Part shown: piece after piece, positions 2,435-58,062 of the stretch
Layout of the letters: every line of letters begins with the position of its first letter
Position numbering within the stretch: the first letter of the stretch is position 1
Assembly: GCA_018645365.1 (NCBI GenBank)
Contig: JABGOP010000002.1
Span: 3,409-67,408 of the forward strand
Direction: 5' to 3'
Source of the DNA: Candidatus Cloacimonadota bacterium
Lineage (GTDB): Bacteria > Cloacimonadota > Cloacimonadia > Cloacimonadales > TCS61
DNA: 64,000 nucleotides
The notes under the pieces: generated by a model
The model's input: the letters and a program-made list of their open reading frames with translations, nothing else
Told to the model about the DNA's origin: nothing
Databases searched by the model: none
Position numbers and translations under genes: made by a program

Positions 2435-2467
2435 TAATTTACCTCTTTTTTTAAAATTCTATCTGCT

Positions 2468-2496
2468 ACTATTTTTTGAATAGTAATATGTGTCAA
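2468..2496 (-). promoter_or_regulatory. Possible sigma70-like promoter for dnaE
   Basis: Minus-strand TTGACA (2496..2491), 17-nt spacer, AATAGT (2473..2468), ~35 nt upstream of the dnaE ATG. Pattern match by eye only. Confidence 0.25.
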
Positions 2497-2522
2497 AATA
2501 TTTTAATATTTTTTTGAATTTT

Positions 2523-2906
2523 CTAAAATTCTGGGTAAAACGCATTCTTTAAGTGATTTATTTTGAAAGTGTTATCTTTTTTTTGAATAATTGCAACCGC
2601 ATCAAATCTGGTTGGAAAATCTTCAAATTCAGGGTGTTGTTGCAAAAAACAGTAAGCGGTCTTGATTATTTTTTTCTGTTTAGCATTTGAAATGCTACTC
2701 AATGCTTTTTCGAGATTTGATTTTCGTGTTTTCACTTCGATAAAAATAAGCGTGTCAGTTCCAATTGCAACAATGTCTATTTCACCATATGCGGAGTGAT
2801 AATTTTGTGCTAAAATCTTATAACCATTTCGTTTAAGAAAACTTACTGCTAGATTTTCTCCAACCATTCCTAAATGTGCATTTTCACTATTTTTCATAAA
2901 ATACAA
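2523..2906 (-). CDS. yraN: YraN/UPF0102 family endonuclease-like protein
   Basis: 127-aa ORF with the family pattern GENLAVSFLKRNGYKIL...YGEIDIVA...LIFIEVKTR. Confidence 0.8.
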   Translation of the reverse strand: MYFMKNSENAHLGMVGENLAVSFLKRNGYKILAQNYHSAYGEIDIVAIGTDTLIFIEVKTRKSNLEKALSSISNAKQKKIIKTAYCFLQQHPEFEDFPTRFDAVAIIQKKDNTFKINHLKNAFYPEF

Positions 2907-2913
2907 AAAAAAC

Positions 2914-2942
2914 TTGACTTGATAATGGTCAATGAATAAAAG
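2914..2942 (+). promoter_or_regulatory. Promoter-like motif in front of the TPR/ExbBD operon
   Basis: TTGACT (2914-2919), 17 nt, TAAAAG (2937-2942), ~24 nt before the ATG at 2966. The same TTGACTTGAT...TAAAAG layout recurs at 19131-19159. Confidence 0.35.
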
Positions 2943-2965
2943 ATCTTTTAAATGTGGAGGATTTT

Positions 2966-3937
2966 ATGAAGAAAATTTTGATATTAATAGTGCTACTGAG
3001 TATTACGGGCTTGTTGTTTGCATCCTATGTTCAATTGGGCTTTACTGAAAGATATACGGTAGAAATACCAACAGCGTATGTTCCAACAGCAAAAATAGTA
3101 GAATTTGATAATATGAATTATTTTGGAATGAAGCACGGTGGATGGTATCTGAACCACATTTTTGCGTTAAAATATGGAATAGATAATAAATATGAATTTA
3201 CCATTTTTGCCCGTGGAAAAGATTATGAAATGGATGGGTATTTTCCCGATTCGCTTTATACTGATCCAAATGAAAATATTCAACCTAAATACAATGATGA
3301 AGTAATCTGTATTAATGCAAAATATTCCATAATTGATGAAACTGACAAGTTACCAGCAATTGCAGTTGGAATGAATGGTATTGATGGTGCAATTAAGAAA
3401 TTAATTGATTCGAAAGCTTCGGCGAATTGGGCACCCTATTTTGTTTTGAGTAAATCGTTTATTGTAACTTTACCAGTCATAAATACAATTCAACCCACCG
3501 TTCATTTTGGGAATGGACAAAGGGCAGAATTCCACTCTTTTTCACCATATGATAAATTATTTTTTGGTTTTTTTGGTGCTCTCTCTATTCCCATAAATGA
3601 CAATATAACATTGACTAGTGAATTTCGTGGTGCAAATTTTAATGCATCTGGTATTTATGAATGGGATAAGTTTGCCATAAAAACTGGATTAGTGCATTTT
3701 GAAGAGATTTTATTGAATGATGATGTGTCTGGTTTTACCTTTTTTTTGAATTTTAAATATAGAGTAGATTATTTTTCTAAACAAGAAAAAGATAGACCAC
3801 GAAACACAAATTTAAATATTACTCCGTCAACTGACCCTTCTGATCAACTGCTTTTAGATGAGCTCAAACAAATTCAAGAACAAAGAATACAGTCTGAAAA
3901 AGAATTGGAAGAACTTCGTAAACTTCTCGAAGATTAA
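2966..3937 (+). CDS. Secreted beta-rich protein with C-terminal coiled-coil tail, function unknown (first gene of operon)
   Basis: The track starts at GTG 2954. ATG 2966 is preferred (GGAGG 2956-2960, 5-nt spacer). Signal peptide MKKILILIVLLSITGLLFA, aromatic/beta-rich body ending FTFFLNFKYRVDYF, then ~55 charged heptad-like residues (LLLDELKQIQEQRIQSEKELEELRKLLED). Confidence 0.75.
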   Translation: MKKILILIVLLSITGLLFASYVQLGFTERYTVEIPTAYVPTAKIVEFDNMNYFGMKHGGWYLNHIFALKYGIDNKYEFTIFARGKDYEMDGYFPDSLYTDPNENIQPKYNDEVICINAKYSIIDETDKLPAIAVGMNGIDGAIKKLIDSKASANWAPYFVLSKSFIVTLPVINTIQPTVHFGNGQRAEFHSFSPYDKLFFGFFGALSIPINDNITLTSEFRGANFNASGIYEWDKFAIKTGLVHFEEILLNDDVSGFTFFLNFKYRVDYFSKQEKDRPRNTNLNITPSTDPSDQLLLDELKQIQEQRIQSEKELEELRKLLED

Positions 3938-3938
3938 G

Positions 3939-5921
3939 ATGAAAAAGATTTTTACGGCGATCATTTTTTTGACCGCATTTTTACTTTTTGCACAAACTAA
4001 AAATAGCGTTTTGATTCGTCAATTAAACACAGAAATTCGTATTTTGATAGAACAAAAACGAGAAGCAAAAATTTATGCTGAACTACTCGAACAAAAAAAT
4101 GAGATAATTTTGCTCATCGAAAAAAATAAGGCAAAAAAAGTAAGAAAGCTATTTCTTAAACAAGCCAAAATAATTGATTATTTTTTGGAAGAAGATAAGA
4201 TAAATTCTGCAGTATCTAAATTAAATGAGCTGAAATTTATTTTTGGAGAAATACATTTTTTGGCAGATTTATTTTTGTATTACGATGCAAAAATAGCTTT
4301 ATTTAAAGGTGAAGATAATTTAGCCGTAGATTTGTTGGAAAAATTGTTAACGCAATTTCCTGATTCTGAAACGCGAAATTTTGCCATATTAGAATTGGAA
4401 AATATTTATTTTCTTTACGAATTAGACTGGAAATTTATCGGGATTTATAATCAGTTTGATGAAGAAAAAACGGACTTGCAAAAATATCGTTTCGCGCACT
4501 GTAACTATAATATTGGTAACATTGCAGATGCCAAATCGATGTTCCAAGTTTTATTAAATTCTAAAGATTTTAGTTTTCGTGCTAAATCGATGTTAGCGTT
4601 AGTTTCCTATTTTTCTAAGGGTGTAAAACCGGCAATTCTTGAATTTCAAACTTTGGAAAACAGCTATCAAAAAAATCCGCCGCCGCACTATTATTTTGTG
4701 CTACTCTCATTAGCCCGTCTTTTTGCCGAACAAAATGAATTCGATAAATCGCTCGCGTATTACGAAAAATTTTATCAAATGCACCAAGAAAAAGTTGATG
4801 ATGGTGTGTTATATGAAATTGCTACCCAATACAAAAATGTGGGAAAATATGAAAATTCGCTCACATATTTACGACGAATTGTGGCAGTTTCACAAAAGAC
4901 AAAATATTTTGCACCAGCAAAATTTCTAATTGCGGTAATTGAACAGGAATTAGGCAATCTTGACAATGCAGAACAGCATCTTGAGGATGTTATTTTGCCA
5001 AATAATGAGTTTCTGGAAACACTTACTTCGAAGTACGATTTGCTGAATAAATATAACGATTTGCAAAGGCAAGTGATTGCAGATTCAGAAAATATAAAAT
5101 TAAAAACTGAAATTTTGGAAACAGAAAAACATCTTCAAAACACGAATTTATTTATCGAAAACTATTATGCAAAATTGGACTCATCAACGGTAACAACTCT
5201 GCAAGAATTAGAAATAGAATATTTGCATTACTGTGAAACAATTGCCGAAATTGACGCAGTAATTCAATTTCGTGAAACTACCCAAAATAGAGAATTATTG
5301 CCGATTGTAGATGATGCAATTGCCAAAGAAGAAGCATCGCTCGTTTTGCTTCAGATGATGAAATACCTAGCAAATGTAAAAAATATTTCTACGACAGATT
5401 ATGAAATTGCCAAAGCTTTAGCGGTTGAACGTATTTACGAAAATTCATTGCTAGAAATGTGGAATAAAATTGAGCAGACTGCAAAAATTAACAACTTTTC
5501 GAATATGTTGATTTTTATTAAAAAATCTCAAAATTTGATTGAGGGCAACATTGCATCTCTCGATTTGATTGCAAAGTACAAATTTAATCCGCAAATTAGT
5601 GATGAAGCACTGGCTTCAATAAAAGCGGAAGCCGAGAATATTGAACACAATAAAAATGAATTATTGGCTTTACGCGAAGATATTTTGAATAATCTTAATA
5701 AAAAGATCGCCCAAAAATTGAGTAAAAAACGCAAGATACTTTTTGATGAATTTGCTGAAATTAAAGTATCATATCAACAATCGATTGATTCGATGAAAAA
5801 ATATATTGGTCGTGAAAATCAAGAAGGAACGCGTACGCTTTTGGATGTGCTCTTCAAACAAACGCAAAAAATTGATGCTGAATTTGAAGAATTGAGAGAG
5901 GATTTTAAGCAAGATGAATAG
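3939..5921 (+). CDS. Secreted TPR-repeat protein with long C-terminal coiled coil
   Basis: The track starts at 3858 inside the upstream gene. ATG 3939 (TAAGATG junction) gives signal peptide MKKIFTAIIFLTAFLLFAQ. The N-terminal half is TPR-like helical hairpins. The C-terminal ~300 aa is E/K/L/Q-rich and coiled-coil-like. Confidence 0.75.
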   Translation: MKKIFTAIIFLTAFLLFAQTKNSVLIRQLNTEIRILIEQKREAKIYAELLEQKNEIILLIEKNKAKKVRKLFLKQAKIIDYFLEEDKINSAVSKLNELKFIFGEIHFLADLFLYYDAKIALFKGEDNLAVDLLEKLLTQFPDSETRNFAILELENIYFLYELDWKFIGIYNQFDEEKTDLQKYRFAHCNYNIGNIADAKSMFQVLLNSKDFSFRAKSMLALVSYFSKGVKPAILEFQTLENSYQKNPPPHYYFVLLSLARLFAEQNEFDKSLAYYEKFYQMHQEKVDDGVLYEIATQYKNVGKYENSLTYLRRIVAVSQKTKYFAPAKFLIAVIEQELGNLDNAEQHLEDVILPNNEFLETLTSKYDLLNKYNDLQRQVIADSENIKLKTEILETEKHLQNTNLFIENYYAKLDSSTVTTLQELEIEYLHYCETIAEIDAVIQFRETTQNRELLPIVDDAIAKEEASLVLLQMMKYLANVKNISTTDYEIAKALAVERIYENSLLEMWNKIEQTAKINNFSNMLIFIKKSQNLIEGNIASLDLIAKYKFNPQISDEALASIKAEAENIEHNKNELLALREDILNNLNKKIAQKLSKKRKILFDEFAEIKVSYQQSIDSMKKYIGRENQEGTRTLLDVLFKQTQKIDAEFEELREDFKQDE

Positions 5922-8900
5922 AATAAAATTTATATTTTTGTTGTTAATTTCTTTCAGCTTATTTGCACAAAATAATGAACTTGATGAAAAATTCAGTCAA
6001 AAAATGGCATATAAACGCAAGGTTTATGAACAGACTCTCAAATTTATCACACAAAATCCAGAATCACCGGGAATTGCTGGGCTTTATTTTAATTTGGCAG
6101 AAATGAGTACGGAAATAGACGCAGCTTCTTTGCGAAAAACAGCAAATTATTATCAAAAAGTTTTAGAGCTTGATCCTGAATTTATCTATCAAGATGCAGT
6201 CCTATACAACATTGGCTATTTTACATTTGAAGCGGAGAAAGATAGTCTTCAAAATTTGCGATATCAAAATATAGATTTGGTGGTAAATTGGCCTGATTCA
6301 TTACGAATTTCGGCTGAAAAGGCAAAAATTGCCATCGAATCTTACCAAAAAATTGAAGCAGAATTTCCATATTCAGAATATCATACCGAAGCAATTTATC
6401 GACTGGGTGCCATCTATTTTGAATTGGCATTAGATGCACGAAACCCGCAGGAACTATATCCGATAGCATTAAAATATTTTGATACAGTTGCCAGAAAAAA
6501 AGGCGATGATTTGCAACATTTTGGATTATTTCAAAGAGGTTGGACGAATTTTACGAGCGGAAAATTTATTGATGCAATCGATGATTTTACTGAAATTTTG
6601 GAAATTATCAACCGCGATTCTCTCAAAACAACGGAAAAGATGTTTTTTGAAGCTGATGCAATCGAAAATATGGCTTTTAGCTTGAGTGAATACGACGAAA
6701 ATTTTGTAGAAAAATCTGTTGCCGCTCAAAAAGCAAAGGAAATATTTTCCAATTTTGTGAGCGATGAATATGGCAAAGAAATTATTTTAGCCGCGATTGA
6801 TCTCAAATTGAAATATAATGCACCGATGCAAGCGATTGACTTGTATAATGCGTTTATCGAGATTTATCCGCAAAACAGAGATTGTCCAAGTTTTGTCGAT
6901 TCGGTTATGACTGTTTATAAGCGATATCCGTCGATGACGCGAAATAATGTAGATGCGATTGATTTAATTATTGCGGAAGAGAAGCGATTGGTCGAAGATT
7001 TTACGATTGATTCCGCTTGGTTCAAATCAAATTCTGGAAAAGATATTTCGAAGCAATTGGGGATAATTAGAAAAAGTTTCAAGCGGATGGGCGATATATA
7101 TCACAACAAATTTATCACCACGAATGCGGAAAAGGATTTCGTGAAATTTGAAAATTTAGTTGCACGCTTTTGCGAATTTGATATTTTCCTCAATGAAGAA
7201 ATTGTGCAAACACAAAAAGATTTTCGTAAACGCGTTATCGATTTGAATTTCCACCTCGCCGAATTTTCCCAAAATCCAGTTCATTACTTTAATGTGGTTG
7301 GAAAATATCGTGAATTTAATGAGTTATATCCAAATCACGCTGATATTTTTGATTTTCAAGAAAATATTTTTATTTGCTTAGATAAAAGTTATGATTTGTT
7401 GTTACCTCAAATTGAAACGCAAACTTTCGTCGATACTTTGCACAACATTACACTCGACAAAAATGGATTGGATTCACTTTACATCAATGCTAGTTTAGAT
7501 TACGAAGATTTGCTTTCAGATGTGAAATTGAATAGAATTCAAAAATCAGAACGAGTTAGAACGATTTATAAGCGTGCTAAAATTCGTTTTGAAGGCAATG
7601 ACTTGGATTCTGCATTTGTGGATTATGAAAAATTATTGACTTTCAGAATAGATAAAAATTTCAAAAAAATATGTAATGTTAAATTAGCGGAAATTAGTGA
7701 ATTGAACGGTGATTTTGGGTTTGCAGAAAAATTCTATCAAGAAGCGTCAAAATTTGCTTCTAAATCAGAGAAAAAGGATTTACAACAGAATGCACTTGCT
7801 TCCATTAATTCTGCTGCCGAAACTTTGCTAAATAATGGTAATGCAGAAGTTGCTGCGGCTGAATATCTTCGTCTGGCAAAAGAGCTTGAAAATACTAATG
7901 TGGAAAAAAGTATAGGATTTATGTTACGTGCAATTGATGTTTATAAAAACATCAATGAATATCAAAAAGCGATAGATTTATTTTTGCAAATTGCAGATTT
8001 GAAGCAAAATAAAAACGAAATTCTCGCTGCGTTTTCTGGAGCATGGTCAATTTCGGATAGTTTGGCCGAAAACGCAGATTTACTGTCTGCCATTACCCTT
8101 TGGAAGCAAAGTGAAAATTTACGAAATCAATTTATTAAGAAATATAAAAAATCAAATGAAGCTTATATTTTGCGTCGTCAAATTATTGAATTTTATGAAA
8201 ATTATCAATTTAACGATAAAGAAAAAGCAGCAAAAATGTACATTAAACTCCATAATAATGCGAGTGAAATGAATTTAGGTGAAGATTCAAAAGAAGCGGT
8301 TTTTGCCAAAGCAATTTTGATTTACGAAGAACTAAAAGATGAAGCTAAAATGGTAGATTTAATTGTCCAGTTTGAAAAATTATACCCAAATTATTCTGCA
8401 ACTGATGGATTAGTTGGTAAGATTGCAGCACTTTACATCGACCGTCAAAATGTAGATGATTTAATGAGTTTTGAGAAGATGTACCCGCTTCACCCAGATG
8501 TAGATGTGGTTTTGAGAAATTTAGCAAATATCTATCTTGAAGATAGCGATGTAAGTTTGATGCTTTCATTTCAGAGAAAATATCCAAATCACGATGCTTC
8601 TGAAATTTTGTTAAATAAAGTTGCCGAAATGTATAATAAAAGCAAAAATATTGAAGATATTCTTGCTTTTACCAAAATGTTTCCTCAGCATTCCGCAAGC
8701 TTAGAATTGCAAAAAACAACAGCGACAATTTATCACGAAAATGGTGATGAAGATAAATTGGAAGAGATTGCGCGCCTTATCAAAAAGAAAGATCCAGATT
8801 ATAATCTTTTAGAGCAGTTAGCCATTCAAAAATTGGTGAAAATAAACGCCGAAATTGATACTCTCTTCGTAACTGAACAATTTGATTTGATGTTAGAAAA

Positions 8901-10563
8901 AATTGAGGAATTCAAAATAACGGATAAGCATTATCGAAAAGATGACATCGAAATTGATTTAACTGCAAATTATGATATTCACGAATATTACGCAAATTTC
9001 GTAGATTTTTACGCTAGATTTGAACAAAAATTATCAAATATTCAAACTGAATTTTTAGGTGTTAGTCCACAAAAATTGATGCGTGTGAACGAGTTGACAG
9101 AGTGGAAAAAACATTTAAATAGTGGCGATAGCAGAGTTCAAAAATTAATGGAAAAATGTGATGAGTACAGTAATGAAATGGTATTGTTGATTAAAGAAGG
9201 CGTTGATTTTGGGCTTGATATCAATCAAAAAACAAAGGCCCTTTATTTTGTTGCTCAAATTTACGATTATGGTATGGAAATTATTTCAGTTCAAATGATG
9301 AGATTTATCAATGAATCTAACCAACTAAATAGTGGAGATATTGCCCAAAATCCAGTTGTTCAAAAACAATGGAAAGCAAATGTGTGGAAAAAAGCAAAAG
9401 AGTTTGCACTCGGATTTCAGAAGAAATCGGCTCAATATTACAACACAATTATGATGACTTTTGTGGATGATAAGGATTATTCTGACGAGTGGACAAATCT
9501 AACATTAAATAGACTAATTGATTGGAAAGTTCGTTCGCCGAAAACTTATCTTTATGCGTATTCTGATTCTACTTGGATTCAAAATAATATACCGATTAAT
9601 GATGTTATTTCTGCTGTAAATGTAGATTCTATATGGATAAATGCAGCCGAGTTTTCTGTAAACGACACCGTGAAATATTTAGAAATTTCACAGAATTTCA
9701 CGACCTATTTTGTGAAAAAATTCGAGAGTATTGTTAAACCAGAAAGATTTTCGGTAAATTATATTTATAACCAGCCAATAGGGATTTATTTGAATGGCGT
9801 AAAATTGGAAAAAGAGCACATTATTCAAGATACGATAAATGGAGAATTGCAGCTTAACACTAACTCTATCAGAAATCTTAAAGATGGTGAGAATACAATT
9901 ATTTTTGAGATTGAATATGATTCTTTGATGGTTGGGAAAAATAAGTTTATTGCTGATTTTGAGATGCAATACGACAAAGAAAAATATGATTTTGCCTTTT
10001 CAACAGAAAAGAAAATTCTTCTTTCTAATTTTTCATGGTTGACGAAAAAAGAAGATTTAGTAGATTCAACTTTTGCGATAGATTCGAGTTGGATTTTGGC
10101 AGATAGTGCTAATTTCTCATTCTTCAAAAATCAGATGTTTGGTCTGCAAAATAGTGAAGCTATCGAGATTTGGTCACCCGCAATTGATACGACAAAAATG
10201 GAAAATGTCTATTTCACAAAACAATTTAAGATTGATACCGAATTTGTGCGTGCGACCGCAAAATATATTGGTCAAAAATCAGTTTCAATCTGGATAAATG
10301 GCGAAGAAATAATTTCAAATGAAGAGATAATTTTTGACACAAAATTGAATCAAGTTCAAACGCAAGAGATAGAAATTTCACAGTTCATAAGTGGTCTCAA
10401 TACCATTTTGGTAAAAGTTGTTGGCGACAAAGCATTTAAGGGTTTTATTTTTGAAATGGAATATGTAGTGAAAAGGACGCTCGAAAATAGTGTTGACAAT
10501 AATATTGAGATTGAAAATGATGCAAACTTAAATGAAGGAGGAAACGATGAGATGGAAAATTAG
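5914..10563 (+). CDS. Giant (1549 aa) secreted TPR protein with BamD/CpoB(YbgF)-like F-x-K-x-YP repeats and two C-terminal beta-sandwich modules
   Basis: Uninterrupted 4650-nt ORF overlapping the upstream stop by 8 nt. Signal peptide MNRIKFIFLLLISFSLFAQ. Many TPR-like hairpins (e.g. IESYQKIEAEFPYSEYHTEAIYRLGAIYFELA). C-terminus has two similar modules (...YFVKKFESIVKPERFSVNYIYNQPIGIYLNGVKL... and ...VYFTKQFKIDTEFVRATAKYIGQKSVSIWINGEEI...). Confidence 0.85.
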   Translation: MNRIKFIFLLLISFSLFAQNNELDEKFSQKMAYKRKVYEQTLKFITQNPESPGIAGLYFNLAEMSTEIDAASLRKTANYYQKVLELDPEFIYQDAVLYNIGYFTFEAEKDSLQNLRYQNIDLVVNWPDSLRISAEKAKIAIESYQKIEAEFPYSEYHTEAIYRLGAIYFELALDARNPQELYPIALKYFDTVARKKGDDLQHFGLFQRGWTNFTSGKFIDAIDDFTEILEIINRDSLKTTEKMFFEADAIENMAFSLSEYDENFVEKSVAAQKAKEIFSNFVSDEYGKEIILAAIDLKLKYNAPMQAIDLYNAFIEIYPQNRDCPSFVDSVMTVYKRYPSMTRNNVDAIDLIIAEEKRLVEDFTIDSAWFKSNSGKDISKQLGIIRKSFKRMGDIYHNKFITTNAEKDFVKFENLVARFCEFDIFLNEEIVQTQKDFRKRVIDLNFHLAEFSQNPVHYFNVVGKYREFNELYPNHADIFDFQENIFICLDKSYDLLLPQIETQTFVDTLHNITLDKNGLDSLYINASLDYEDLLSDVKLNRIQKSERVRTIYKRAKIRFEGNDLDSAFVDYEKLLTFRIDKNFKKICNVKLAEISELNGDFGFAEKFYQEASKFASKSEKKDLQQNALASINSAAETLLNNGNAEVAAAEYLRLAKELENTNVEKSIGFMLRAIDVYKNINEYQKAIDLFLQIADLKQNKNEILAAFSGAWSISDSLAENADLLSAITLWKQSENLRNQFIKKYKKSNEAYILRRQIIEFYENYQFNDKEKAAKMYIKLHNNASEMNLGEDSKEAVFAKAILIYEELKDEAKMVDLIVQFEKLYPNYSATDGLVGKIAALYIDRQNVDDLMSFEKMYPLHPDVDVVLRNLANIYLEDSDVSLMLSFQRKYPNHDASEILLNKVAEMYNKSKNIEDILAFTKMFPQHSASLELQKTTATIYHENGDEDKLEEIARLIKKKDPDYNLLEQLAIQKLVKINAEIDTLFVTEQFDLMLEKIEEFKITDKHYRKDDIEIDLTANYDIHEYYANFVDFYARFEQKLSNIQTEFLGVSPQKLMRVNELTEWKKHLNSGDSRVQKLMEKCDEYSNEMVLLIKEGVDFGLDINQKTKALYFVAQIYDYGMEIISVQMMRFINESNQLNSGDIAQNPVVQKQWKANVWKKAKEFALGFQKKSAQYYNTIMMTFVDDKDYSDEWTNLTLNRLIDWKVRSPKTYLYAYSDSTWIQNNIPINDVISAVNVDSIWINAAEFSVNDTVKYLEISQNFTTYFVKKFESIVKPERFSVNYIYNQPIGIYLNGVKLEKEHIIQDTINGELQLNTNSIRNLKDGENTIIFEIEYDSLMVGKNKFIADFEMQYDKEKYDFAFSTEKKILLSNFSWLTKKEDLVDSTFAIDSSWILADSANFSFFKNQMFGLQNSEAIEIWSPAIDTTKMENVYFTKQFKIDTEFVRATAKYIGQKSVSIWINGEEIISNEEIIFDTKLNQVQTQEIEISQFISGLNTILVKVVGDKAFKGFIFEMEYVVKRTLENSVDNNIEIENDANLNEGGNDEMEN
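8371..8766 (+). repeat. Four exact-period tandem 99-nt (33-codon) coding repeats inside the giant TPR gene
   Basis: Units start at 8371, 8470, 8569 and 8668: FEKLYPNYS..., FEKMYPLHP..., FQRKYPNHD..., FTKMFPQHS.... Conserved positions are F1, K/R3, Y/F5, P6, H/Y8, A19, Y22. Confidence 0.85.
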
Positions 10564-10795
10564 CGTAATTTTAATGATTATTGCCGTTTTTGGTTTTGCT
10601 CAAAATCCCAAAGTAAATTTAGATAAGTTTAAAGAGAAGAAAAAATTGGTGAGTGAAGAGGTAGTTGAAGAAACAATCCAGATTCGTAAGCCAGAAAATG
10701 CAGTGATGATGTCACGAAAGCGTACAAATTTAGAGTTTTATTATAAAATAAATATTCGTGAAAGATTAATAAAATCAAATAAATTATTATATTAA
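10547..10795 (+). CDS. Small secreted K/E-rich protein (82 aa), unknown function
   Basis: AGGAGG 10536-10541 with a 5-nt spacer to ATG 10547 (track start 10532). Signal peptide MRWKISVILMIIAVFGFAQ. Overlaps the end of the giant gene by 17 nt. Confidence 0.6.
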   Translation: MRWKISVILMIIAVFGFAQNPKVNLDKFKEKKKLVSEEVVEETIQIRKPENAVMMSRKRTNLEFYYKINIRERLIKSNKLLY

Positions 10796-10804
10796 GGAGA
10801 AAAA

Positions 10805-11530
10805 ATGAGTAGAAAATGGATGAAGGTGTTGTTAGTTGCAGTGTTTACTGTGATGTTTGGTAATTTAGCGGCGGTTAATTTGGTCGATATGTATATGGAT
10901 GGTGGACCATTTATGCACATAATTGCTGGTTTGTTTGTGGTTATGATTGTGGTGGCATTGGTTAAATTTTTCCAATTATCTATTACGGAAAAACTCGACA
11001 CGAAGAGATTTTACCTTAAATTGAAGGGTTACATTGCTAATGACCAATTTGGTGAAGCCGTTGAAATTAGTAGTCAGTTCAAAAAGACAACAATGGGTTT
11101 TATTTTCTGGAATGGTTTAGTTGCTTTTTTGGATGCTAAAAAAGCTGGTAAGAAAGGGTTTACATTGCAGAAAGATGTACAAAATGCTTTTGATGAAGCC
11201 GGCTTACAGAAAATGCCATCAATTGAAGCTGGACTTTTTTGGTTAGATATTATTGCACAAGTAGCTACTCTTCTTGGTTTGCTCGGAACTATTTTCGGCT
11301 TGGTTGCTGCTTTTGATGCTCTTGCAAATGCACCTGAAAATTTGAAGCAAAAAATGCTTACAGAGGGTATTTCGCAAGCAATGGGGACTACAGCGTGGGG
11401 TCTTTTGGTAGCAATTCCAACGATGGGTATAAAAGGTGCATTACAAGCAAAAGCCGATAAAATTGTTAATGATATTGATGAATACAGTGTGAAGATTATC
11501 AACAGAATTAGTTATAAAATAGAGGATTAA
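10805..11530 (+). CDS. exbB: MotA/TolQ/ExbB-family proton channel
   Basis: AAGGAG RBS. 241 aa with typical C-terminal TM pair and motif LLGLLGTIFGLVAAF...LTEGISQAMGTTAWGLLVAIP. Confidence 0.9.
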   Translation: MSRKWMKVLLVAVFTVMFGNLAAVNLVDMYMDGGPFMHIIAGLFVVMIVVALVKFFQLSITEKLDTKRFYLKLKGYIANDQFGEAVEISSQFKKTTMGFIFWNGLVAFLDAKKAGKKGFTLQKDVQNAFDEAGLQKMPSIEAGLFWLDIIAQVATLLGLLGTIFGLVAAFDALANAPENLKQKMLTEGISQAMGTTAWGLLVAIPTMGIKGALQAKADKIVNDIDEYSVKIINRISYKIED

Positions 11531-11533
11531 TCA

Positions 11534-12037
11534 ATGGCTTATGCTCCATCGAAATCAAGAAAGATATCGAGAAAAGAACCGAAAGAACCGAATCTTATTC
11601 CCATTATGAATCTGTTCATTGTTGTCATTCCGATGTTAATGACGATGATGGTTTCGGTTCATTTGGCGATGTTGGAAATCACTCTTCCAACTCCGTCTGG
11701 CGGTGGTGGTTCAGAAGAAATAGAACAAAAAGAAGAACCACCCAAAGAGATAATGTTGGCTCTTTTTCCCGATAAATTTGAGATAAGTATTGAAGGAAGT
11801 GAAGATGTTATCAAGATACCTATTTTGGAAAATACACATAATTACATGGAACTTCATAACAAAATGGGCGAATTAAAACTTGTACACGAAAGACAGCAAA
11901 CAGTTAAAATTATCCCCGACCCCAATGTGAAATTTGATACTTTGCTTCGTTCGGTTGATATTTGTAAAGGTAATGGGTTTCCAAACATAACTTATTCTAC
12001 AATTCAGAAAAAGTATTACCGTGTTGGTAAAAAATAG
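11534..12037 (+). CDS. exbD: ExbD/TolR-family protein, paralog 1 (Asn at the conserved TM Asp position)
   Basis: 167 aa. N-terminal basic segment plus TM NLIPIMNLFIVVIPMLM, aligning with TolR NIVPLLDVLLVL. Periplasmic alpha/beta domain (VKIIPDPNVKFDTLLRSVDICKGNGF). Confidence 0.8.
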   Translation: MAYAPSKSRKISRKEPKEPNLIPIMNLFIVVIPMLMTMMVSVHLAMLEITLPTPSGGGGSEEIEQKEEPPKEIMLALFPDKFEISIEGSEDVIKIPILENTHNYMELHNKMGELKLVHERQQTVKIIPDPNVKFDTLLRSVDICKGNGFPNITYSTIQKKYYRVGKK

Positions 12038-12046
12038 AGGACTGAG

Positions 12047-12685
12047 ATGATACGATCAAATGTTGCTGTGAATAGGGGGAGAATTCAACCGGGTGGGTCA
12101 ATATCAAGTCGTTTCAAGATTAAGGCAAAAGGGAAAAAAGCGAAAGATTTAAACATCACTTCCCTGATTGATATTTTAACGATTTTGTTAGTTTTTATGA
12201 TTAAAAATGTTTCGATGGATGCTGCCCAAAAGAATGCTCCAGAAGGTATGGAAATGCCAACGACATTCAATAAAAATGAACTAATTGAAAGTGGTGATGC
12301 GGTTTTTGTGAAAATATATTCACCAAAAATTGATGGTCAAACTGGCGAAGAATTGGACGGTAAAATTCTTTACGGAAAAGAGAATATTTTGGTAGGCAGT
12401 TTATCTAATTTTGTTTCTGATAATAACATTCGCAAAGTTCTTTTGCAATATTTGAAGTTGGAATCGAAACAAATTAGTAAAACAGTGGATAGTGAAGGTA
12501 AAAGTAAAATTCCTTGTTTGTTGATTCAAGCTGATAAAGACTTGGAATGTCGCTATATTACTGAATTTATTAAATTTAGTGGACAGGCTTCTTTTGCAAA
12601 TATCTACTTTTCCACAATTCATACTGAAAACCAGGATGAAGTTTTGGGGATTGTGGCAAACTCAGCAGAAGTGGTTGGAAATTAG
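12047..12685 (+). CDS. exbD: ExbD/TolR-family protein, paralog 2 (Asp retained, extended periplasmic domain)
   Basis: GAGGA RBS. 212 aa. TM LNITSLIDILTILLVFMI with the conserved Asp. Longer periplasmic part ending LLIQADKDLECRYITEFIKFSGQASF. Confidence 0.8.
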   Translation: MIRSNVAVNRGRIQPGGSISSRFKIKAKGKKAKDLNITSLIDILTILLVFMIKNVSMDAAQKNAPEGMEMPTTFNKNELIESGDAVFVKIYSPKIDGQTGEELDGKILYGKENILVGSLSNFVSDNNIRKVLLQYLKLESKQISKTVDSEGKSKIPCLLIQADKDLECRYITEFIKFSGQASFANIYFSTIHTENQDEVLGIVANSAEVVGN

Positions 12686-12691
12686 GCGGTT

Positions 12692-14164
12692 ATGATGAAT
12701 AAAATTTTGAATTTAACTTTATCTTATAGAGGGAAACATCTAGATACCATCAAACATAATCGTGACTTTAAGAATAAATTTATTATCGGCAGCGACAAAC
12801 ATTTATTTTGGCAAATTCTCGATAAGAATTTCCCACAAAAACACACTTTTTTAACTTTTTCAGGTGGGAAATATGTTATTCATCTTTTGGAAAATATGGA
12901 TATTTCGGTTCGAAAAAATGATGATGAACTTTCCCATGATGAAATAGGTAAAATGCTGATTAATAATAAACTTCAGCTTTCCGCAAACATAAATGGTTCA
13001 ATAGCTTTTGCCGATTGGGAAATTGGCTATAAATTTGTGGAACCTTTCAAATTGAACCTAAAACATTTTTCAAAGGCAGAAATTGCAACTGCTATAAAAA
13101 AATACGGTCGAAGAGAACCAATCTCAAAAGAACATAAATTTACGACATTTTTCTTGCTTTTTGGATTGCTTTTTACAGCCGTTGGGCTTTATATTGGCAC
13201 AAAAAATTATGTACCACCAGCTGAAATTAGCTTTACCGAACGCTTCCAAAAAGTGGAGGAAATTGCCACTCGAATTGAAGCAGAAATGGAAGAAATTGAA
13301 TTAGAAAAAAAAGAAGATACACCAAAAGTTGATGTAACGAAGCATCGTGCAGAAACAGCAGAAGCTGCTGAAGAAGCAGTGGAAAAAGCACAAGAGGTGG
13401 CAGCAGCAGATTTTGCCGCAGAATTTGGTTTGGAATTTGATGAAACTGCAACTACTGGTGGTGACGATTTTGGTGGTGAAATTTTGGAAATTGCCCAAGT
13501 TAATGATATTGTCGTAGCACCTCAAACTGGTGGTGGCAGTGGAACTGGTGAAATTCCGGGCTCTGGTAGTGGCTCTGCTTTATCTGGTTCTGGTAGTGGT
13601 GAGCTAGATTTTGGATCTGGCGGTGATTTCGGTGGTTTTGGCGACGGTGGTGGTCTCGGTGATTTAGGTAGTCTTTCGGGTGGGAATTTGGAAGGTTTAG
13701 ATCTCGGTGGCGCAGGTTTAGAAGAGATTGATATTTCGGCTATTGGCGGAAAAATTGGTAATTTGAAAACGATTAAAATTCAAAGCAATGCACAACTTGC
13801 TGCTGCTAAGAAAAAGTTTGCTGGCGTGAAAGCAGTCAAAGAAGAAGCTATTGAGTTGGAAGAAATTACACCAGAAGCAAAAACGGAAATTGCGAAAATT
13901 AACCAAATTGTGAATACATATCGACCGCAAATTGCTAGTCGTTATCGAGTGGAATCGATGAAATATGATATGTATGGAACGATGAATATCACGCTTTACA
14001 TTGAAGAAAATGGTACTATTGTAGCGGTTGAATTTGACATTACAGTCGGCAGTCATTTCACAGATGAATTTTTGGAAATTGTCCGTGCGATAATTTTAAA
14101 ATGGAAAATCCCAGTTAAAGAAGCCCAGATTTTTGAGTTCCGCCAAAAATTTGTGAAACAATAA
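12692..14164 (+). CDS. Bitopic TonB_C/AgmX-PglI-like energy-transducer candidate with cytoplasmic N-domain, acidic helix and Gly-rich linker
   Basis: 490 aa. ~150-aa N-terminal domain, single TM FTTFFLLFGLLFTAVGLYIGT, E/A-rich helix, then G/S/D low-complexity region. C-terminal ~90 aa follow the TonB_C-like pattern (YRPQIASRYRVE...GTMNITLYIEENGTIVAVEFD...ILKWKIPV...FEFRQKF). Confidence 0.7.
   Translation: MMNKILNLTLSYRGKHLDTIKHNRDFKNKFIIGSDKHLFWQILDKNFPQKHTFLTFSGGKYVIHLLENMDISVRKNDDELSHDEIGKMLINNKLQLSANINGSIAFADWEIGYKFVEPFKLNLKHFSKAEIATAIKKYGRREPISKEHKFTTFFLLFGLLFTAVGLYIGTKNYVPPAEISFTERFQKVEEIATRIEAEMEEIELEKKEDTPKVDVTKHRAETAEAAEEAVEKAQEVAAADFAAEFGLEFDETATTGGDDFGGEILEIAQVNDIVVAPQTGGGSGTGEIPGSGSGSALSGSGSGELDFGSGGDFGGFGDGGGLGDLGSLSGGNLEGLDLGGAGLEEIDISAIGGKIGNLKTIKIQSNAQLAAAKKKFAGVKAVKEEAIELEEITPEAKTEIAKINQIVNTYRPQIASRYRVESMKYDMYGTMNITLYIEENGTIVAVEFDITVGSHFTDEFLEIVRAIILKWKIPVKEAQIFEFRQKFVKQ
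13529..13717 (+). repeat. GGT/GGC-rich low-complexity coding tract (Gly/Ser/Asp linker)
   Basis: Encodes GGGSGTGEIPGSGSGSALSGSGSGELDFGSGGDFGGFGDGGGLGDLGSLSGGNLEGLDLGGAG. Imperfect and locally GC-rich compared with its surroundings. Confidence 0.8.
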
Positions 14165-14170
14165 AAAAGG

Positions 14171-14194
14171 AAGCCCTCTACTGAGGGCTTTTTT
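14171..14194 (+). terminator. Rho-independent terminator closing the TPR/ExbBD operon
   Basis: AAGCCCTC (14171-14178), loop TACT, GAGGGCTT (14183-14190), then TTTT. Starts 7 nt after the stop codon. Confidence 0.85.
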
Positions 14195-14196
14195 AA

Positions 14197-16557
14197 ATGA
14201 ATTATTACGAAATAGCAATTCCTGTAAATCTAGAAAAAAACTATACTTATCAATCTTTTGCAACTATCAAAACAGGCTGTCGAGTTTTCGTATCATTTCA
14301 AAATACATTTTACACTGGCATCGTTTGGCAGAAAGCATTGGAAATTAATCCAGATATAAAATACAAAGAAATTATCGAAATAATTGACGAGACTCCCAAA
14401 ATAACTCATAACCTTCTCAAATTAGCTGACTGGATAAGTCATTATTATCATTGCAGTTTAGGAATGGTTATTGCCGCAATGTTGCCGTCTGCTTTTAATA
14501 TTCAAACTCAACAGAAAGTAAAAAGAATTTCCATAAAATTGGAAGTCGACGCAGAGATATTATCGCTTATTTCAAAGGATGAATGGACAGATATTTCTAT
14601 CTTGAAAGAGAATAAAATAACTAATATTTACGAAAGATTAGAAAAACTGGAAGTTTTGCAACTTATTGAAATTCAAAGAACTTATGACGAAAAAATAAAA
14701 AAGAAAATTGCCAATTTTATAGTTTTGAATTTTCCCCAAATATTGCCAGAACTAACAGTAAAACAAAATGAAGTTTACACCGAATTGCAAAAAGTTGGAA
14801 CAGATTTTCCTCTTTCCAAAATTATAAATCAATTTACTTATTATAGCGTCAAAAAATTGCGTGAAAAAGGTTTGCTCACAATAGAGCCACGCGAAATAGA
14901 TAGTAAAACTTCACTTTTACCTAAAGAACGGAAAATACGGAATTTTCAATTGACAGATGAGCAAAATGAAGCAGTGAAATGTTTGCAAAAATCAGTTTCA
15001 AAAAACGAGTTTAAAGCATTTTTACTTTATGGAATAACTGGAAGCGGTAAAACAGAAGTTTATATAAAAGCGATTGAAAAAGCACTTCAAATGGGGAAAA
15101 CTGCGTTAATGCTCGTTCCAGAAATTTCGTTGACTCCTCAAATGGTGGAGATGTTTTACAATGCATTTGGCGAGAATATTGCTATTTTGCACAGCCATTT
15201 GAATGACCGAGAACGATGGGAACAGTGGAATAAAATTAAGTCTGGTGATAGTAAAATTGTCATTGGTGCGAGAAGTGCAATTTTTGCGCCACTCGAAAAT
15301 ATAGGTGTTATCATCGTGGACGAAGAACACGAAACTACTTATAAGCAAGATAAAACGCCACGATATAATGGTCGCGACTTAGCTGTTGTTCGTGGAAAAT
15401 TTGCTGATGCGGTTGTTATTTTGGGAAGTGCCACCCCTTCACTTGAAAGTTGGCAAAATGTAAAATCAGAAAAATATCAATTACTAAAGCTTACCAAACG
15501 ACCCAAAAATGCTGAGCTTTCAAAAATTAAAATTATCGATATGCGTCGTGAAAAAAATACAAAAAATATTCTTTCTGAAAAATTAAAGAAAAAAATTGAA
15601 GAACGCCTAAAATCAAAAGAACAAGTCATCTTGTTGCAGAATAGGAGAGGTTATTCGTCGTTTGTGCAATGTATTTCTTGTGGTAAATTATTCGAATGCA
15701 AAAATTGCGATGTCAGTATGAAATTTCACAGTAAAGAGCAAAAACTGATTTGTCATTATTGTGGATTTTCAGAAAAAATGCCACGAAAATGTCCATCATG
15801 TGAAAGTTATCTTTTCAGTTTTGGCGCAGCGGGAACGCAACAAATAGAAAAGCAATTACAAATAATTTTCCCAACTGCCAAAATTTTACGAATGGATTCC
15901 GATTCGGCACGCAAAAAAGATAGTTACAATTTGATGTTTGAAAAAATGCGTAGTGGAAATGTCGATATTTTATTGGGTACGCAAATGATTGCGAAAGGTC
16001 TCGATTTTCCAAATGTAACATTAGTCGGTGTGATTTCGGCGGATATTGGTTTGAATGTGCCAGATTTTCGTGCAGCAGAGCGTACATTTCAACTACTTAC
16101 ACAGGTTGCTGGTAGATCTGGAAGAGGTGAAAAACCGGGCGAAGTTATTGTTCAAACCTATAATCCAGAGCATTACACCATTCTTTTGGCAATGGAACAA
16201 GACGCCGAAAAATTTACCGAAAAAGAGATGGAATTGCGTGAGATGTTATCTTATCCGCCAGTTACCAGAATGGCTCGCATTGTGTTTAGTAATAAAAATG
16301 AGAATTATTTGAAACAGCAGTTATTGCGAAATTCAAAATTATTTGAGATTTTGCGACAACACGATGACGATTTAAAAATTTTGGGACCGGTTCCAACGCC
16401 AATCGAAAAGCTGCAAAATATGTATCGATATCACCTCATCATTAAAACGAAATCTTTTGGGAAACTGTCGCAAACAATCGATTATTTGCAACAAAATTTA
16501 CAACTTGGTTCGACCATAAAATCAATAATCGATATTGATCCATATTCATTATTATAA
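14197..16557 (+). CDS. priA: Primosomal protein N' (replication restart helicase PriA)
   Basis: 786 aa. Walker A GITGSGKTEVY, DEEH box (IIVDEEHE), Cys-rich zinc region CISCGKLFECKNCDVSMKFH...CHYCG...CPSC. Confidence 0.92.
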   Translation: MNYYEIAIPVNLEKNYTYQSFATIKTGCRVFVSFQNTFYTGIVWQKALEINPDIKYKEIIEIIDETPKITHNLLKLADWISHYYHCSLGMVIAAMLPSAFNIQTQQKVKRISIKLEVDAEILSLISKDEWTDISILKENKITNIYERLEKLEVLQLIEIQRTYDEKIKKKIANFIVLNFPQILPELTVKQNEVYTELQKVGTDFPLSKIINQFTYYSVKKLREKGLLTIEPREIDSKTSLLPKERKIRNFQLTDEQNEAVKCLQKSVSKNEFKAFLLYGITGSGKTEVYIKAIEKALQMGKTALMLVPEISLTPQMVEMFYNAFGENIAILHSHLNDRERWEQWNKIKSGDSKIVIGARSAIFAPLENIGVIIVDEEHETTYKQDKTPRYNGRDLAVVRGKFADAVVILGSATPSLESWQNVKSEKYQLLKLTKRPKNAELSKIKIIDMRREKNTKNILSEKLKKKIEERLKSKEQVILLQNRRGYSSFVQCISCGKLFECKNCDVSMKFHSKEQKLICHYCGFSEKMPRKCPSCESYLFSFGAAGTQQIEKQLQIIFPTAKILRMDSDSARKKDSYNLMFEKMRSGNVDILLGTQMIAKGLDFPNVTLVGVISADIGLNVPDFRAAERTFQLLTQVAGRSGRGEKPGEVIVQTYNPEHYTILLAMEQDAEKFTEKEMELREMLSYPPVTRMARIVFSNKNENYLKQQLLRNSKLFEILRQHDDDLKILGPVPTPIEKLQNMYRYHLIIKTKSFGKLSQTIDYLQQNLQLGSTIKSIIDIDPYSLL

Positions 16558-16618
16558 CAATTTTCTTGACGAAAAAAGGGTGATTAAGTTCTGGTTATTT
16601 TTAAATATAGGAGGATAA

Positions 16619-17764: not shown

Positions 17765-17766
17765 AT

Positions 17767-18300
17767 TTGAAATTATTGGTTCATATCTGTTGTGCACCGT
17801 GTTTCGCGGCGCCCTATTATTATTTGAAAAAGAAATTTGATATTCACGGTTTTTGGTTTAATCCTAATATTCACCCATATTTAGAGTATAAAAACAGAAT
17901 GGAGGAAGTGGAAAAATTTGCCAAAAATGAAAAATTTCCAATAATTTTTAAAGATGAATATAAGCTTAAAGATTTTTTACGAAAAGCAAGTTTTAGAGAA
18001 AATAATCGTTGTCAATTTTGTTATTACGACCGTTTAAAATACGCAGCGATTATCGCTAAAAAAGGTAATTTTGATTTTTTTACAACTTCGCTTTTATACA
18101 GTAAATTCCAAAATCATGAGTTGGTTCGTGAAATTGGAGAATCGCTTGCAAAAGAGTATAAAATAAAATTTTATTACGAAGATTTTCGTGAATATTGGAA
18201 AGAAGGGATTCAAATTTCCAAAGAAAAAAAGATGTATCGACAACAATATTGTGGTTGTATTTTCAGTGAAGAAGATAGATATAAGCCGAAGGGAAGTTGA
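17767..18300 (+). CDS. queH: Epoxyqueuosine reductase QueH (DUF208)
   Basis: 177 aa. N-terminal LLVHICCAPC and C-terminal YRQQYCGC Cys motifs typical of QueH. Apparent TTG start 2 nt after the upstream stop. Confidence 0.8.
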   Translation: MKLLVHICCAPCFAAPYYYLKKKFDIHGFWFNPNIHPYLEYKNRMEEVEKFAKNEKFPIIFKDEYKLKDFLRKASFRENNRCQFCYYDRLKYAAIIAKKGNFDFFTTSLLYSKFQNHELVREIGESLAKEYKIKFYYEDFREYWKEGIQISKEKKMYRQQYCGCIFSEEDRYKPKGS

Positions 18301-19786: not shown

Positions 19787-19850
19787 CAGATTTGGAGGAT
19801 ATGTCGAAAAAATTGTGCTTTAATTTACAAAAAATGTTTTGGAGGAAATT

Positions 19851-57913: not shown

Positions 57914-58062
57914 ATTCAATTTAACCTCGCCCGTCATTAATTTTTTGAGCAAGATTGTGTCAAATGTTTTGTGACAATGCAGATAATCGTTTTAAATGTT
58001 CAAAAAATAACTTGCCTAATTATTATGATTTTTTTTTCTGCGATAAATATTTGGAGGATAAC

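Follow-up and report, generated by a model that had tools for sequence, protein, structure and literature searches.

An eight-gene Cloacimonadota operon that probably encodes a version of the Agl-Glt/Nfs-type core complex

In a 64,000-nucleotide stretch of DNA from a Candidatus Cloacimonadota bacterium (contig JABGOP010000002.1, positions 3,409 to 67,408; hereafter the window), eight co-directional genes on the + strand at positions 2966 to 14164, which we designate G1 to G8, place a TolQ/ExbB-type channel and two ExbD/TolR-type subunits beside large secreted proteins built of tetratricopeptide repeats (TPRs). The question that this locus raises is what kind of envelope machine such a motor serves. 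An earlier note, made from the DNA letters alone, had likened the genes to the Agl-Glt parts list and not to a Ton or Tol-Pal system. Our analysis leads us to favor, with a probability of roughly 70%, the reading that the operon is this phylum's form of the Agl-Glt/Nfs-type "core complex", a force transducer that would span the envelope and be driven by the proton-motive force.

According to Luciano et al. 2011 (PMC3169522), the Group A gliding genes are restricted to Myxococcales and Bdellovibrionales, and Group B consists of gltC, gltD, gltE, gltG, aglR, aglQ, and aglS. Outside gliders, Group B genes occur at one locus as a core complex whose function is not known. It was reported in gamma- and beta-proteobacteria, Geobacter, and Fibrobacter succinogenes, and its clusters also hold an extra gene that has no Myxococcus homolog (PMC3169522). 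We found no paper on the cluster in Cloacimonadota.

Results

The last gene encodes a GltG-like protein

G8 (positions 12692 to 14164, + strand; junction of +6 nucleotides) encodes a 490-amino acid bitopic protein with the features of a GltG-like transducer. In the AlphaFold2 (AF2) model computed from the family alignment, residues 1 to 120 form a confident beta-sandwich, residues 146 to 171 a transmembrane (TM) helix, and residues 390 to 490 a confident alpha-beta-beta-alpha-beta domain, with a predicted lDDT score (pLDDT) of about 90 for the domains. The acidic, Gly-rich linker of roughly 120 to 200 amino acids (residues ~190 to 365) is modeled with low confidence and is mostly disordered, with pLDDT below 50 at residues 194 to 221 and 244 to 365 and one predicted helix at residues 218 to 245. 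Foldseek relates the C-terminal domain to those of TonB, FusB, HasB, and TolAIII (probabilities up to 1.0, template modeling score to the target up to 0.64) and the N-terminal domain to the forkhead-associated (FHA) domains of TIFA, DDL, and APLF. The corresponding E-values, about 1e-2, are comparable to the published values for GltG and GltJ.

When G8 is searched alone, its sole NCBIfam match is to the model of the AgmX/PglI C-terminal domain (NF033768; 3.2e-4, 20.8 bits). This model is matched by 24 of the 31 members of the G8 family (best 5.2e-6), below the curated cutoff of 40. There is no match of G8 to PF03544 or PF13103 at E <= 0.1, and TIGR01352 and the TolA model each touch 1 of the 31 family members. 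Profile searches of the PDB with the G8 and G1 families returned coiled-coil or ATP-synthase-b noise only. When the G8 family profile was run against 1.84 billion representative proteins, 136 matches were obtained at E <= 1e-3. Distant full-length relatives among them have the same architecture, match NCBIfam GltG at 1e-20 to 1e-59, and pass the AgmX/PglI cutoff, and their GltG match spans model positions ~205 to 650, a stretch that takes in the second FHA domain and the TM helix as well as the linker and C-terminal domain. Direct alignment of the G8 family with the GltG-like set by hhalign gives 99.9% probability (E 3e-31) over the full length. By profile comparison, then, G8 is homologous to GltG-like proteins along its whole length and, given this span in the model, is a divergent GltG-type transducer that lacks the first FHA domain of GltG. 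The FHA-TM-linker-AgmX/PglI organization of such transducers is present in G8, which alone scores under every curated cutoff. The TonB_C-like C terminus that had been read from the sequence is thus borne out, through a weak NF033768 match of G8 itself, the matches of most of its family, and the hhalign result.

The predicted motor has one channel subunit and two ExbD/TolR paralogs

G5 (positions 10805 to 11530, + strand; junction +9) encodes a 241-amino acid proton-channel subunit of the TolQ/ExbB/AglR type. The protein matches Pfam MotA_ExbB (PF01618) at 2.7e-23 and 82.5 bits, against a cutoff of 22.9, and keeps the channel Thr and Pro motifs of TM2 and TM3 (GLLGTIFGL and GTTAWGLLVAIP). Its closest solved structures are TolQ (3e-10) and then ExbB (5e-5), and its best NCBIfam match is likewise TolQ. 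On the basis of these matches, G5 is a TolQ-like channel subunit.

The genes that follow, G6 (positions 11534 to 12037, + strand; junction +3; 167 amino acids) and G7 (positions 12047 to 12685, + strand; junction +9; 212 amino acids), both match Pfam ExbD (PF02472; cutoff 25.4 bits), at 3.5e-9 and 37.2 bits for G6 and at 1.9e-6 and 28.4 bits for G7; neither has a match in the PDB. Proteins of the G6 type and the G7 type are separately orthologous across phyla, and as judged by orthology the two are distinct, anciently separated ExbD/TolR paralogs.

The paralogs can be told apart at the canonical proton-binding position. G7 has the motif SLIDIL, the Asp of which is invariant in 43 orthologs. 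In G6 the motif is IPIMNLF, with Asn at the position of the canonical Asp, and this Asn is strictly conserved in the orthologs from Cloacimonadota, Calditrichota, and KSB1 (PIMNLF or PVMNIF; loci L001 to L042). The G6 orthologs of Zixibacteria and Coatesbacteria have Asp at that position (PFIDML). Thus, the feature that typifies ExbD/TolR subunits, a single TM helix with an Asp, is found in one of the two paralogs, G7, and a stator with the Asn of G6 and the Asp of G7 would therefore hold a single protonatable Asp. Both AglQ and AglS are reported to have the TM Asp, and the D28N substitution in AglQ abolishes function. The conserved Asn of G6 is a new detail of the core-complex motor.

Large TPR proteins are conserved neighbors of the motor genes

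G3 (positions 5914 to 10563, + strand; junction -8) encodes a secreted TPR protein of 1549 amino acids at the position that GltD occupies in related clusters. Pfam TPR matches are found in G3 and at residues 121 to 354 of G2. There are 75 homologs of G3, and all of those with a named source are from Cloacimonadota (one is labelled Candidatus Tenebribacter); the N-terminal ~55% of the protein is conserved, and the Trp-rich C-terminal region is variable. In direct pairwise comparisons, G3 aligns at 9e-12 with a 1437-amino acid Zixibacteria protein, collinearly over 330 residues and in further segments, and at 5e-12 with the D-position TPR protein of a cluster that has GltC-like (1.8e-24), GltE-like (1.3e-35), CglF/GltF-like, and GltG-like (3.2e-37) genes. 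Its phmmer matches are limited to the position-equivalent large TPR proteins and include no other TPR proteins in the same loci. Judging from these alignments, G3 is a homolog of the large TPR protein that related clusters encode at the GltD position. The labels that jackhmmer gives to TPR proteins were treated with caution, and claims were based on phmmer and BLASTP, which are not iterative and were relied on because repeat-protein profiles drift.

The order G1-G2-G3-small-ExbB-ExbD-ExbD-G8 is found in the window and in five further divergent Cloacimonadota lineages, in which the identity of G3 ranges from 25 to 64%. It is kept where both flanks differ (locus L006) and where the downstream flank differs (L007). 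One divergent lineage (L002 and L003; positions 10001 to 15871) has a single 1956-amino acid protein in place of G2 and G3. Residues ~553 to 1951 of this protein align with full-length G3 (residues 25 to 1422 of the G3 of L001), and its first ~550 residues have no similarity to G2 by BLAST or profile; the alignment suggests that it may be G3 fused with a diverged G2 part.

Among the Cloacimonadota loci for which Pfam tables were available (L001, L002, L006, L007, and L008), no TolB, Pal/OmpA, or Plug-domain genes are annotated within 10 kb, and Pfam and NCBIfam searches find neither TolB nor Pal among the operon proteins of the window. At about 50 loci of other phyla, the neighbors were compared with the eight window proteins only. 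The association drawn earlier from a single genome therefore recurs among relatives, the TPR genes being conserved neighbors of the motor genes in six Cloacimonadota lineages and at ~40 loci of other phyla, and tolB-pal is not a conserved neighbor of the cluster in those Cloacimonadota loci for which Pfam tables exist.

Related clusters occur outside Cloacimonadota

A scan with a three-sequence GltG-like alignment, in which each species was represented by one genome, yielded 49 loci from Calditrichota/Caldithrix, KSB1, Zixibacteria, Coatesbacteria, and Fibrobacteria. The closest intermediate, P0190, lies in an ExbB-ExbD-ExbD-GltG-like array. As assigned by phmmer, the loci of Calditrichota and KSB1 encode a TPR protein of ~960 to 1050 amino acids, a protein of ~115 amino acids, ExbB, a G6-type ExbD, a G7-type ExbD, and a GltG-like protein of ~440 amino acids. 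Loci of Zixibacteria type and those of Coatesbacteria, assigned by phmmer and jackhmmer, encode a G2-like protein (~600 to 655 amino acids), a G3-like protein (~1410 to 1470), a protein of ~175 amino acids, ExbB, two ExbDs, and two GltG-like proteins, after which a Wzz-like protein and a further large TPR protein are often encoded. At L051 (positions 8909 to 18066), as also at L045, L047, L049, and L052, the tandem GltG-like genes (~440 and ~460 amino acids) are followed by a Wzz-like gene (~620 to 630 amino acids) and then by a second TPR gene of ~1400 amino acids. The Wzz-like gene beside these clusters hints at a link to surface polysaccharide.

One locus, L010 (GCA_024278455.1; positions 902 to 14821), encodes GltC-like, GltE-like, and GltG-like proteins together with a small CglF/GltF-like protein and two YbgF-like TPR proteins. 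It has no adjacent motor genes and adjoins a Wza-type Poly_export gene and genes for sugar-nucleotide enzymes.

Two loci of KSB1 type carry, downstream of the cluster related to G1 to G8, a second and canonical-looking ExbB-ExbD-ExbD-TonB-like cluster (L028, positions 11429 to 14162; L032, positions 12806 to 15424), which follows directly in L028 and after one more GltG-like gene in L032. Both of its ExbDs have the Asp, and its ExbB is far more distant from G5 (5e-11 versus ~1e-33). Because the two clusters stand side by side in the same genomes, both systems coexist there as paralogs.

The Fibrobacter loci L054 and L057 to L059 were matched via the TonB_C-like domain only, and those inspected were rejected as TPR-linked clusters: in L054 no ExbB is seen, and the neighbors in L057 are genes for rhomboid and PfkB proteins.

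The remaining secreted proteins are conserved within the phylum

The N termini of G1 to G4 are signal-peptide-like, ending FA/Q or FA/S (the slash marks the end of the putative signal peptide), and none of the four has a lipobox Cys. G1 (positions 2966 to 3937, + strand) encodes a secreted beta-rich protein of 323 amino acids with a conserved, amphipathic, charged C-terminal helix (the tail is 53% charged, a composition that would suit the coiled coil noted earlier) and is a candidate outer-membrane component. The protein is homologous to its positional equivalents in other Cloacimonadota (1e-18 and 9e-31), and by direct pairwise comparison it matches a partial open reading frame in L048, a locus of Zixibacteria-type layout, at 1e-5. 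Sub-threshold matches to Pfam YjbH were found in 5 of 8 members of the G1 family (best 5.8e-5). AF2, run with an alignment of five close sequences, gave a pLDDT of 31.7 and was confident only for the helix at residues 291 to 322. This conserved secreted protein may be the outer-membrane partner of the machine, and the earlier statement that the locus encodes no receptor was in this respect too strong.

G2 (positions 3939 to 5921, + strand; junction +1) encodes a secreted TPR protein of 660 amino acids whose long, helical C-terminal half is poor in Pro and Gly (1.7% at residues 361 to 660), which again would suit the coiled coil noted earlier. It occupies a GltC/GltE-type position and is kept in the same place in five Cloacimonadota lineages. 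Its positional equivalent in Zixibacteria, with 655 amino acids, matches NCBIfam GltC at 2.2e-11. Direct pairwise comparison of G2 with this counterpart gave 0.14, which is not significant, and G2 itself has no NCBIfam GltC match.

G4 (positions 10547 to 10795, + strand; junction -17) encodes a secreted, K/E-rich protein of 82 amino acids at a GltF-type small-protein position and is conserved in Cloacimonadota (3e-6 to 3e-13). Small secreted proteins are also encoded just upstream of ExbB in L011 to L042 (for example L014, positions 7962 to 8303) and in L043 to L055 (for example L051, positions 6554 to 7090). Their conserved motif is GRIEKPQTVFIIPG...IDRSFF in Calditrichota/KSB1, and the Zixibacteria proteins have GRLERPVALFIK...FARDFW. 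By hhalign (96.9%) these sets are homologs of one another, the Zixibacteria set having an extra C-terminal hydrophobic segment, and the small protein tested from a Zixibacteria locus (L051) has a weak match to NCBIfam CglF, which is GltF. An assignment of G4 itself as a GltF homolog was rejected, with hhalign giving 2% against the small proteins that occupy the same position in other phyla.

The eight genes form a predicted transcription unit

Reading of the open reading frames reproduces exactly the eight genes and the junctions of +1, -8, -17, +9, +3, +9, and +6 nucleotides given in the earlier note. Independent gene calls on two near-identical NCBI contigs (L004 and L005, from a "Candidatus Cloacimonetes" metagenome-assembled genome) agree, the 82-amino acid gene included. 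As read from layout and conservation, the eight genes are one conserved operon for a predicted envelope-spanning machine.

The operon is separated by a 59-bp divergent intergenic region from yraN, which is followed by dnaE, both on the minus strand. Direct reading of this region gives a promoter-like TTGACT-17-TAAAAG motif (positions 2914 to 2942, + strand), and a GGAGG Shine-Dalgarno sequence lies 7 nucleotides 5' of the G1 ATG. The claim of a promoter stands only in part, in that the motif is present but was not returned by a consensus promoter scan, the -10 rule of which it fails. Since shuffled versions of this AT-rich region give about as many promoter-like matches (77 observed versus 70.6 expected), the motif is weak evidence. 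In the window (positions 1 to 2906), dnaE lies directly upstream of yraN on the minus strand, and, in comparison with L001, L002, L007, and L008, the one or two GWxTD-domain genes that separate dnaE from yraN in other Cloacimonadota are absent, which indicates a local rearrangement.

Behind G8 lies a GC-rich hairpin (positions 14167 to 14194, + strand) with an A-run on its 5' side and a T-run on its 3' side. Its predicted RNA is strongly folded (-17.8 kcal/mol, z = -5.0), and 0 of 200 shuffled sequences fold equally well. The proposal of a strong hairpin is thereby upheld, but its role as the end of the transcript is less clear-cut: the element looks bidirectional and, given the upstream A-run, could act on either strand, and since the ATG of priA (position 14197) begins 3 nucleotides past the T-run, read-through into priA is possible. 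The gap between hairpin and priA has no space for a promoter or a typical ribosome-binding site.

Other genes of the window were noted in passing. A response-regulator receiver fused to a PglZ domain (positions 19839 to 21407) is conserved in place in both sister contigs, L004 and L005. Positions 22000 to 52700 hold a long co-directional gene run with a G+C content of 0.24 to 0.31, versus 0.32 to 0.38 in the flanks. This run encodes polysaccharide biosynthesis (a Polysacc_synt flippase, Bac_transf, a UDP-glucose/GDP-mannose dehydrogenase, and a nucleotidyltransferase/thymidylate-kinase fusion) and is probably a variable surface-glycan island. The 1179-amino acid protein encoded at positions 57955 to 61494 joins GH57 and pullulanase X25 domains to a type I dockerin at its C terminus, a combination that is unusual in a Cloacimonadota genome. 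Neither the Rfam scan nor the tRNA scan found anything in the 64-kb window.

Discussion

How might these parts work together? In the published structural model, the motor is AglR5-AglQ-AglS and GltG has the organization FHA-TM helix-linker-TonB_C. The membrane-proximal FHA domain and the TM helix of GltG dock on AglR, a linker of ~124 amino acids crosses the wall, and the TonB_C-like domain binds GltD and the small GltF. The mechanism that we propose for the operon transfers this AglR5-AglQ-AglS/Glt model, by analogy with the structures of TolQR and ExbBD. Five G5 subunits would surround a G6-G7 heterodimer, and proton flow via the single Asp of G7 would bring about a step, either conformational or rotary. 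G8 would dock on G5 with its TM helix and its membrane-proximal FHA-like domain, and the long, flexible G8 linker would span the peptidoglycan, such that the TonB_C-like domain could engage a periplasmic TPR scaffold made of G3 with G2 and the small G4. This scaffold might be tied to the outer membrane by the C-terminal helix of G1, and the output would be mechanical work on a target in the outer membrane or at the cell surface.

Our leading guess for that target is a surface polysaccharide or an adhesion complex, as in Agl-Nfs, which moves spore-coat polysaccharide. Hints of polysaccharide come from the Wzz-like and Wza-like genes beside related clusters and from the YjbH-like matches of G1. 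TonB-dependent transporters and TolB-Pal are probably not the target.

Several observations weigh against the core-complex assignment. All of the protein-protein contacts in the mechanism are inferred by analogy. None of G1, G2, and G4 is significantly similar to a Glt protein in direct comparison, and the AF2 model of G1 is unusable at its pLDDT of 31.7, yielding neither a fold nor a location. The matches of G3 fall in TPR-rich sequence, in which E-values can be inflated. GltD and GltE are lipoproteins in Myxococcus, and G2 and G3, unlike these, lack a lipobox. TolQ is the best solved-structure match of G5. As for G8, it has no direct match to Pfam TonB_C or NCBIfam GltG, and its score for NF033768 is under the cutoff (20.8 versus 40 bits).

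Some of these same observations would suit a housekeeping machine for envelope integrity or division that replaces Tol-Pal, in which a TolQR-like motor pulls, via a TolA-like G8, on a YbgF/CpoB-like TPR protein and an outer-membrane protein instead of on TolB-Pal. Such a replacement contests the proposed function and not the homology, and we regard it as unlikely, though of the rivals considered it has the most to recommend it. The block is found in every Cloacimonadota lineage sampled, usually amid housekeeping genes (dnaE, yraN, priA); TolQ leads the solved-structure and NCBIfam matches of G5; and YbgF/CpoB and BamD models give the best scores for the TPR units of G3-type proteins. Against it, neither TolB, a beta-propeller, nor Pal/OmpA is annotated next to the Cloacimonadota genes where Pfam tables exist, and G8 has FHA-like and AgmX/PglI-type domains rather than those of TolA, the TolA model being matched by a single member of its family. 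An arrangement with two TolR paralogs is moreover a feature of Agl and not of Tol.

An ordinary Ton system, in which ExbB-ExbD-ExbD-TonB energizes transporters encoded elsewhere and the TPR genes are unrelated passengers, is considerably less probable still. The order ExbB-ExbD-ExbD-TonB-like is that of Bacteroidota Ton operons, which counts in its favor, as does the TonB C-terminal fold of the last domain of G8, and for F. succinogenes the authors of PMC6851124 hypothesize TonB-dependent cellodextrin import by FSU_2400-2403. G8, however, has no match to Pfam TonB_C or TonB_2, with TIGR01352 confined to 1 of 31 family members, and it bears a cytoplasmic FHA-like domain that classical TonB lacks. 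The TPR genes, far from behaving as passengers, are invariant neighbors across phyla with translationally coupled junctions, and in KSB1 (L028 and L032) a separate, canonical-looking ExbB-ExbD-ExbD-TonB-like cluster exists beside the one of the present type. There is scarcely any room for an anti-phage MotAB system of the Zorya kind, or for a chance juxtaposition of unrelated genes. The defense reading of G5 was rejected: the ZorA matches are marginal (0.0036) and limited to the generic MotA/ExbB core, PADLOC found no other match for any operon protein and no ZorC, ZorD, or ZorE partners, and the cluster belongs to the core and keeps its synteny throughout whole phyla, where a defense island would be patchy. 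Chance is excluded by the tight or overlapping junctions and the conserved order. The Agl-Glt-like parts list proposed at the outset is accordingly preferred to Ton and Tol-Pal, in view of the GltG-type G8, the conserved TPR neighbors, and the lack of adjacent TolB/Pal in the annotated Cloacimonadota loci.

If the operon is a core complex, its function would explain the role of this long-enigmatic complex in bacteria that do not glide, a question that has stood since 2011. A collinear version is present in every Cloacimonadota lineage sampled and is common in several sister phyla of the Fibrobacter-Chlorobi-Bacteroides (FCB) group. What had looked like a patchy curiosity would thus be a conserved envelope system in bacteria abundant in anaerobic digesters and sediments. 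The natural variants (Asp/Asn versus Asp/Asp stators, transducers with and without the FHA-like domain, and one versus two GltG-like proteins) lend themselves to tests of how motor and load are coupled. A more ambitious and rather doubtful possibility is that the machine is ancient and FCB-wide (Cloacimonadota, Zixibacteria, Coatesbacteria, Calditrichota, KSB1, and Fibrobacterota), with an asymmetric, single-Asp stator that moves or organizes a surface polymer or adhesion complex, and that it represents the non-motile ancestor type of the gliding and spore-coat motors of Myxococcus.

Comparison with known systems

The closest published instance of the core complex is that of F. succinogenes S85, for which Table S3 of Luciano et al. 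(PMC3169522) lists Fisuc_1892 (GltC; a TPR protein of 746 amino acids), Fisuc_1893 (GltD; a TPR protein of 1292 amino acids), Fisuc_1894 (AglR; ExbB, 212 amino acids), Fisuc_1896 (AglS; ExbD), and Fisuc_1897 (GltG; TonB family, 308 amino acids). FSU_2396 (OmpA), FSU_2397 and FSU_2398 (both TPR), and FSU_2400-2403 (ExbB, ExbD, ExbD, TonB) are all more abundant on cellulose, and the TPR and OmpA proteins among them were found in cellulose-binding multiprotein complexes (PMC6851124). We infer that FSU_2396-2403 and Fisuc_1892-1897 are the same locus. Like the operon, Fisuc_1892-1897 has TPR, TPR, ExbB, two ExbD, and GltG-like genes in the same order, and both hosts are FCB bacteria; the link was drawn through Zixibacteria, Calditrichota, and GltG-like intermediates. 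The F. succinogenes GltG-like protein, unlike G8, has 308 amino acids and therefore probably lacks the FHA-like domain. Its upstream outer-membrane gene, FSU_2396, is annotated as OmpA-family, whereas G1 is not OmpA-like, and neither the Asn of G6 nor the Trp-rich C-terminal extension of G3 is described for this system.

With the Agl-Glt and Agl-Nfs machines of Myxococcus xanthus, the operon shares a motor of one TolQ-like subunit and two unlike TolR-like ones (AglR5QS), a GltG-type transducer (an FHA domain that adjoins the TM helix, a long periplasmic linker that is disordered, and a TonB_C-like domain), large TPR proteins as a presumed periplasmic scaffold, and a gene for a small secreted protein between the TPR and GltG-like genes. 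It differs in that homologs of GltA, GltB, GltH, GltK, GltI, GltJ, CglB, AglZ, and MglA were not seen in the 64-kb window and flanks, and the NCBIfam gliding models matched none of the eight proteins except for the AgmX/PglI tail. The missing components, among them the outer-membrane barrels GltA, GltB, GltH, and GltK, the adhesin CglB, and the cytoplasmic AglZ/MglA platform, are the Group A and cytoplasmic parts on which motility depends. G8 has no counterpart of the first, N-terminal FHA domain of GltG, and G6 has Asn where both AglQ and AglS have Asp. The Myxococcus motor genes, moreover, lie in a locus apart from the glt genes.

Tol-Pal resembles the operon in its TolQ-like channel, its TolR-like subunits, a TolAIII/TonB_C-like fold, and CpoB/YbgF-like TPR units. 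The operon departs from it in having no adjacent TolB/Pal, two TolR paralogs rather than a homodimer, an FHA-like domain, and giant TPR proteins rather than the 26-kDa CpoB. The exbB-exbD-exbD-tonB genes of Bacteroidota have the same ExbB-ExbD-ExbD-(TonB-like) order and the same fold in the C-terminal domain, but G8 gives no TonB_C profile match, its acidic/Gly-rich linker is not a rigid Pro-rich spacer, and the TPR partners are obligate. That no characterized system has such a composition, as the earlier note had it, was an overstatement in light of the core complex of Luciano et al. 2011 (PMC3169522) and the F. succinogenes proteomics (PMC6851124). The composition of the operon is of a known kind, for which Cloacimonadota are a new phylum rather than the source of a new system.

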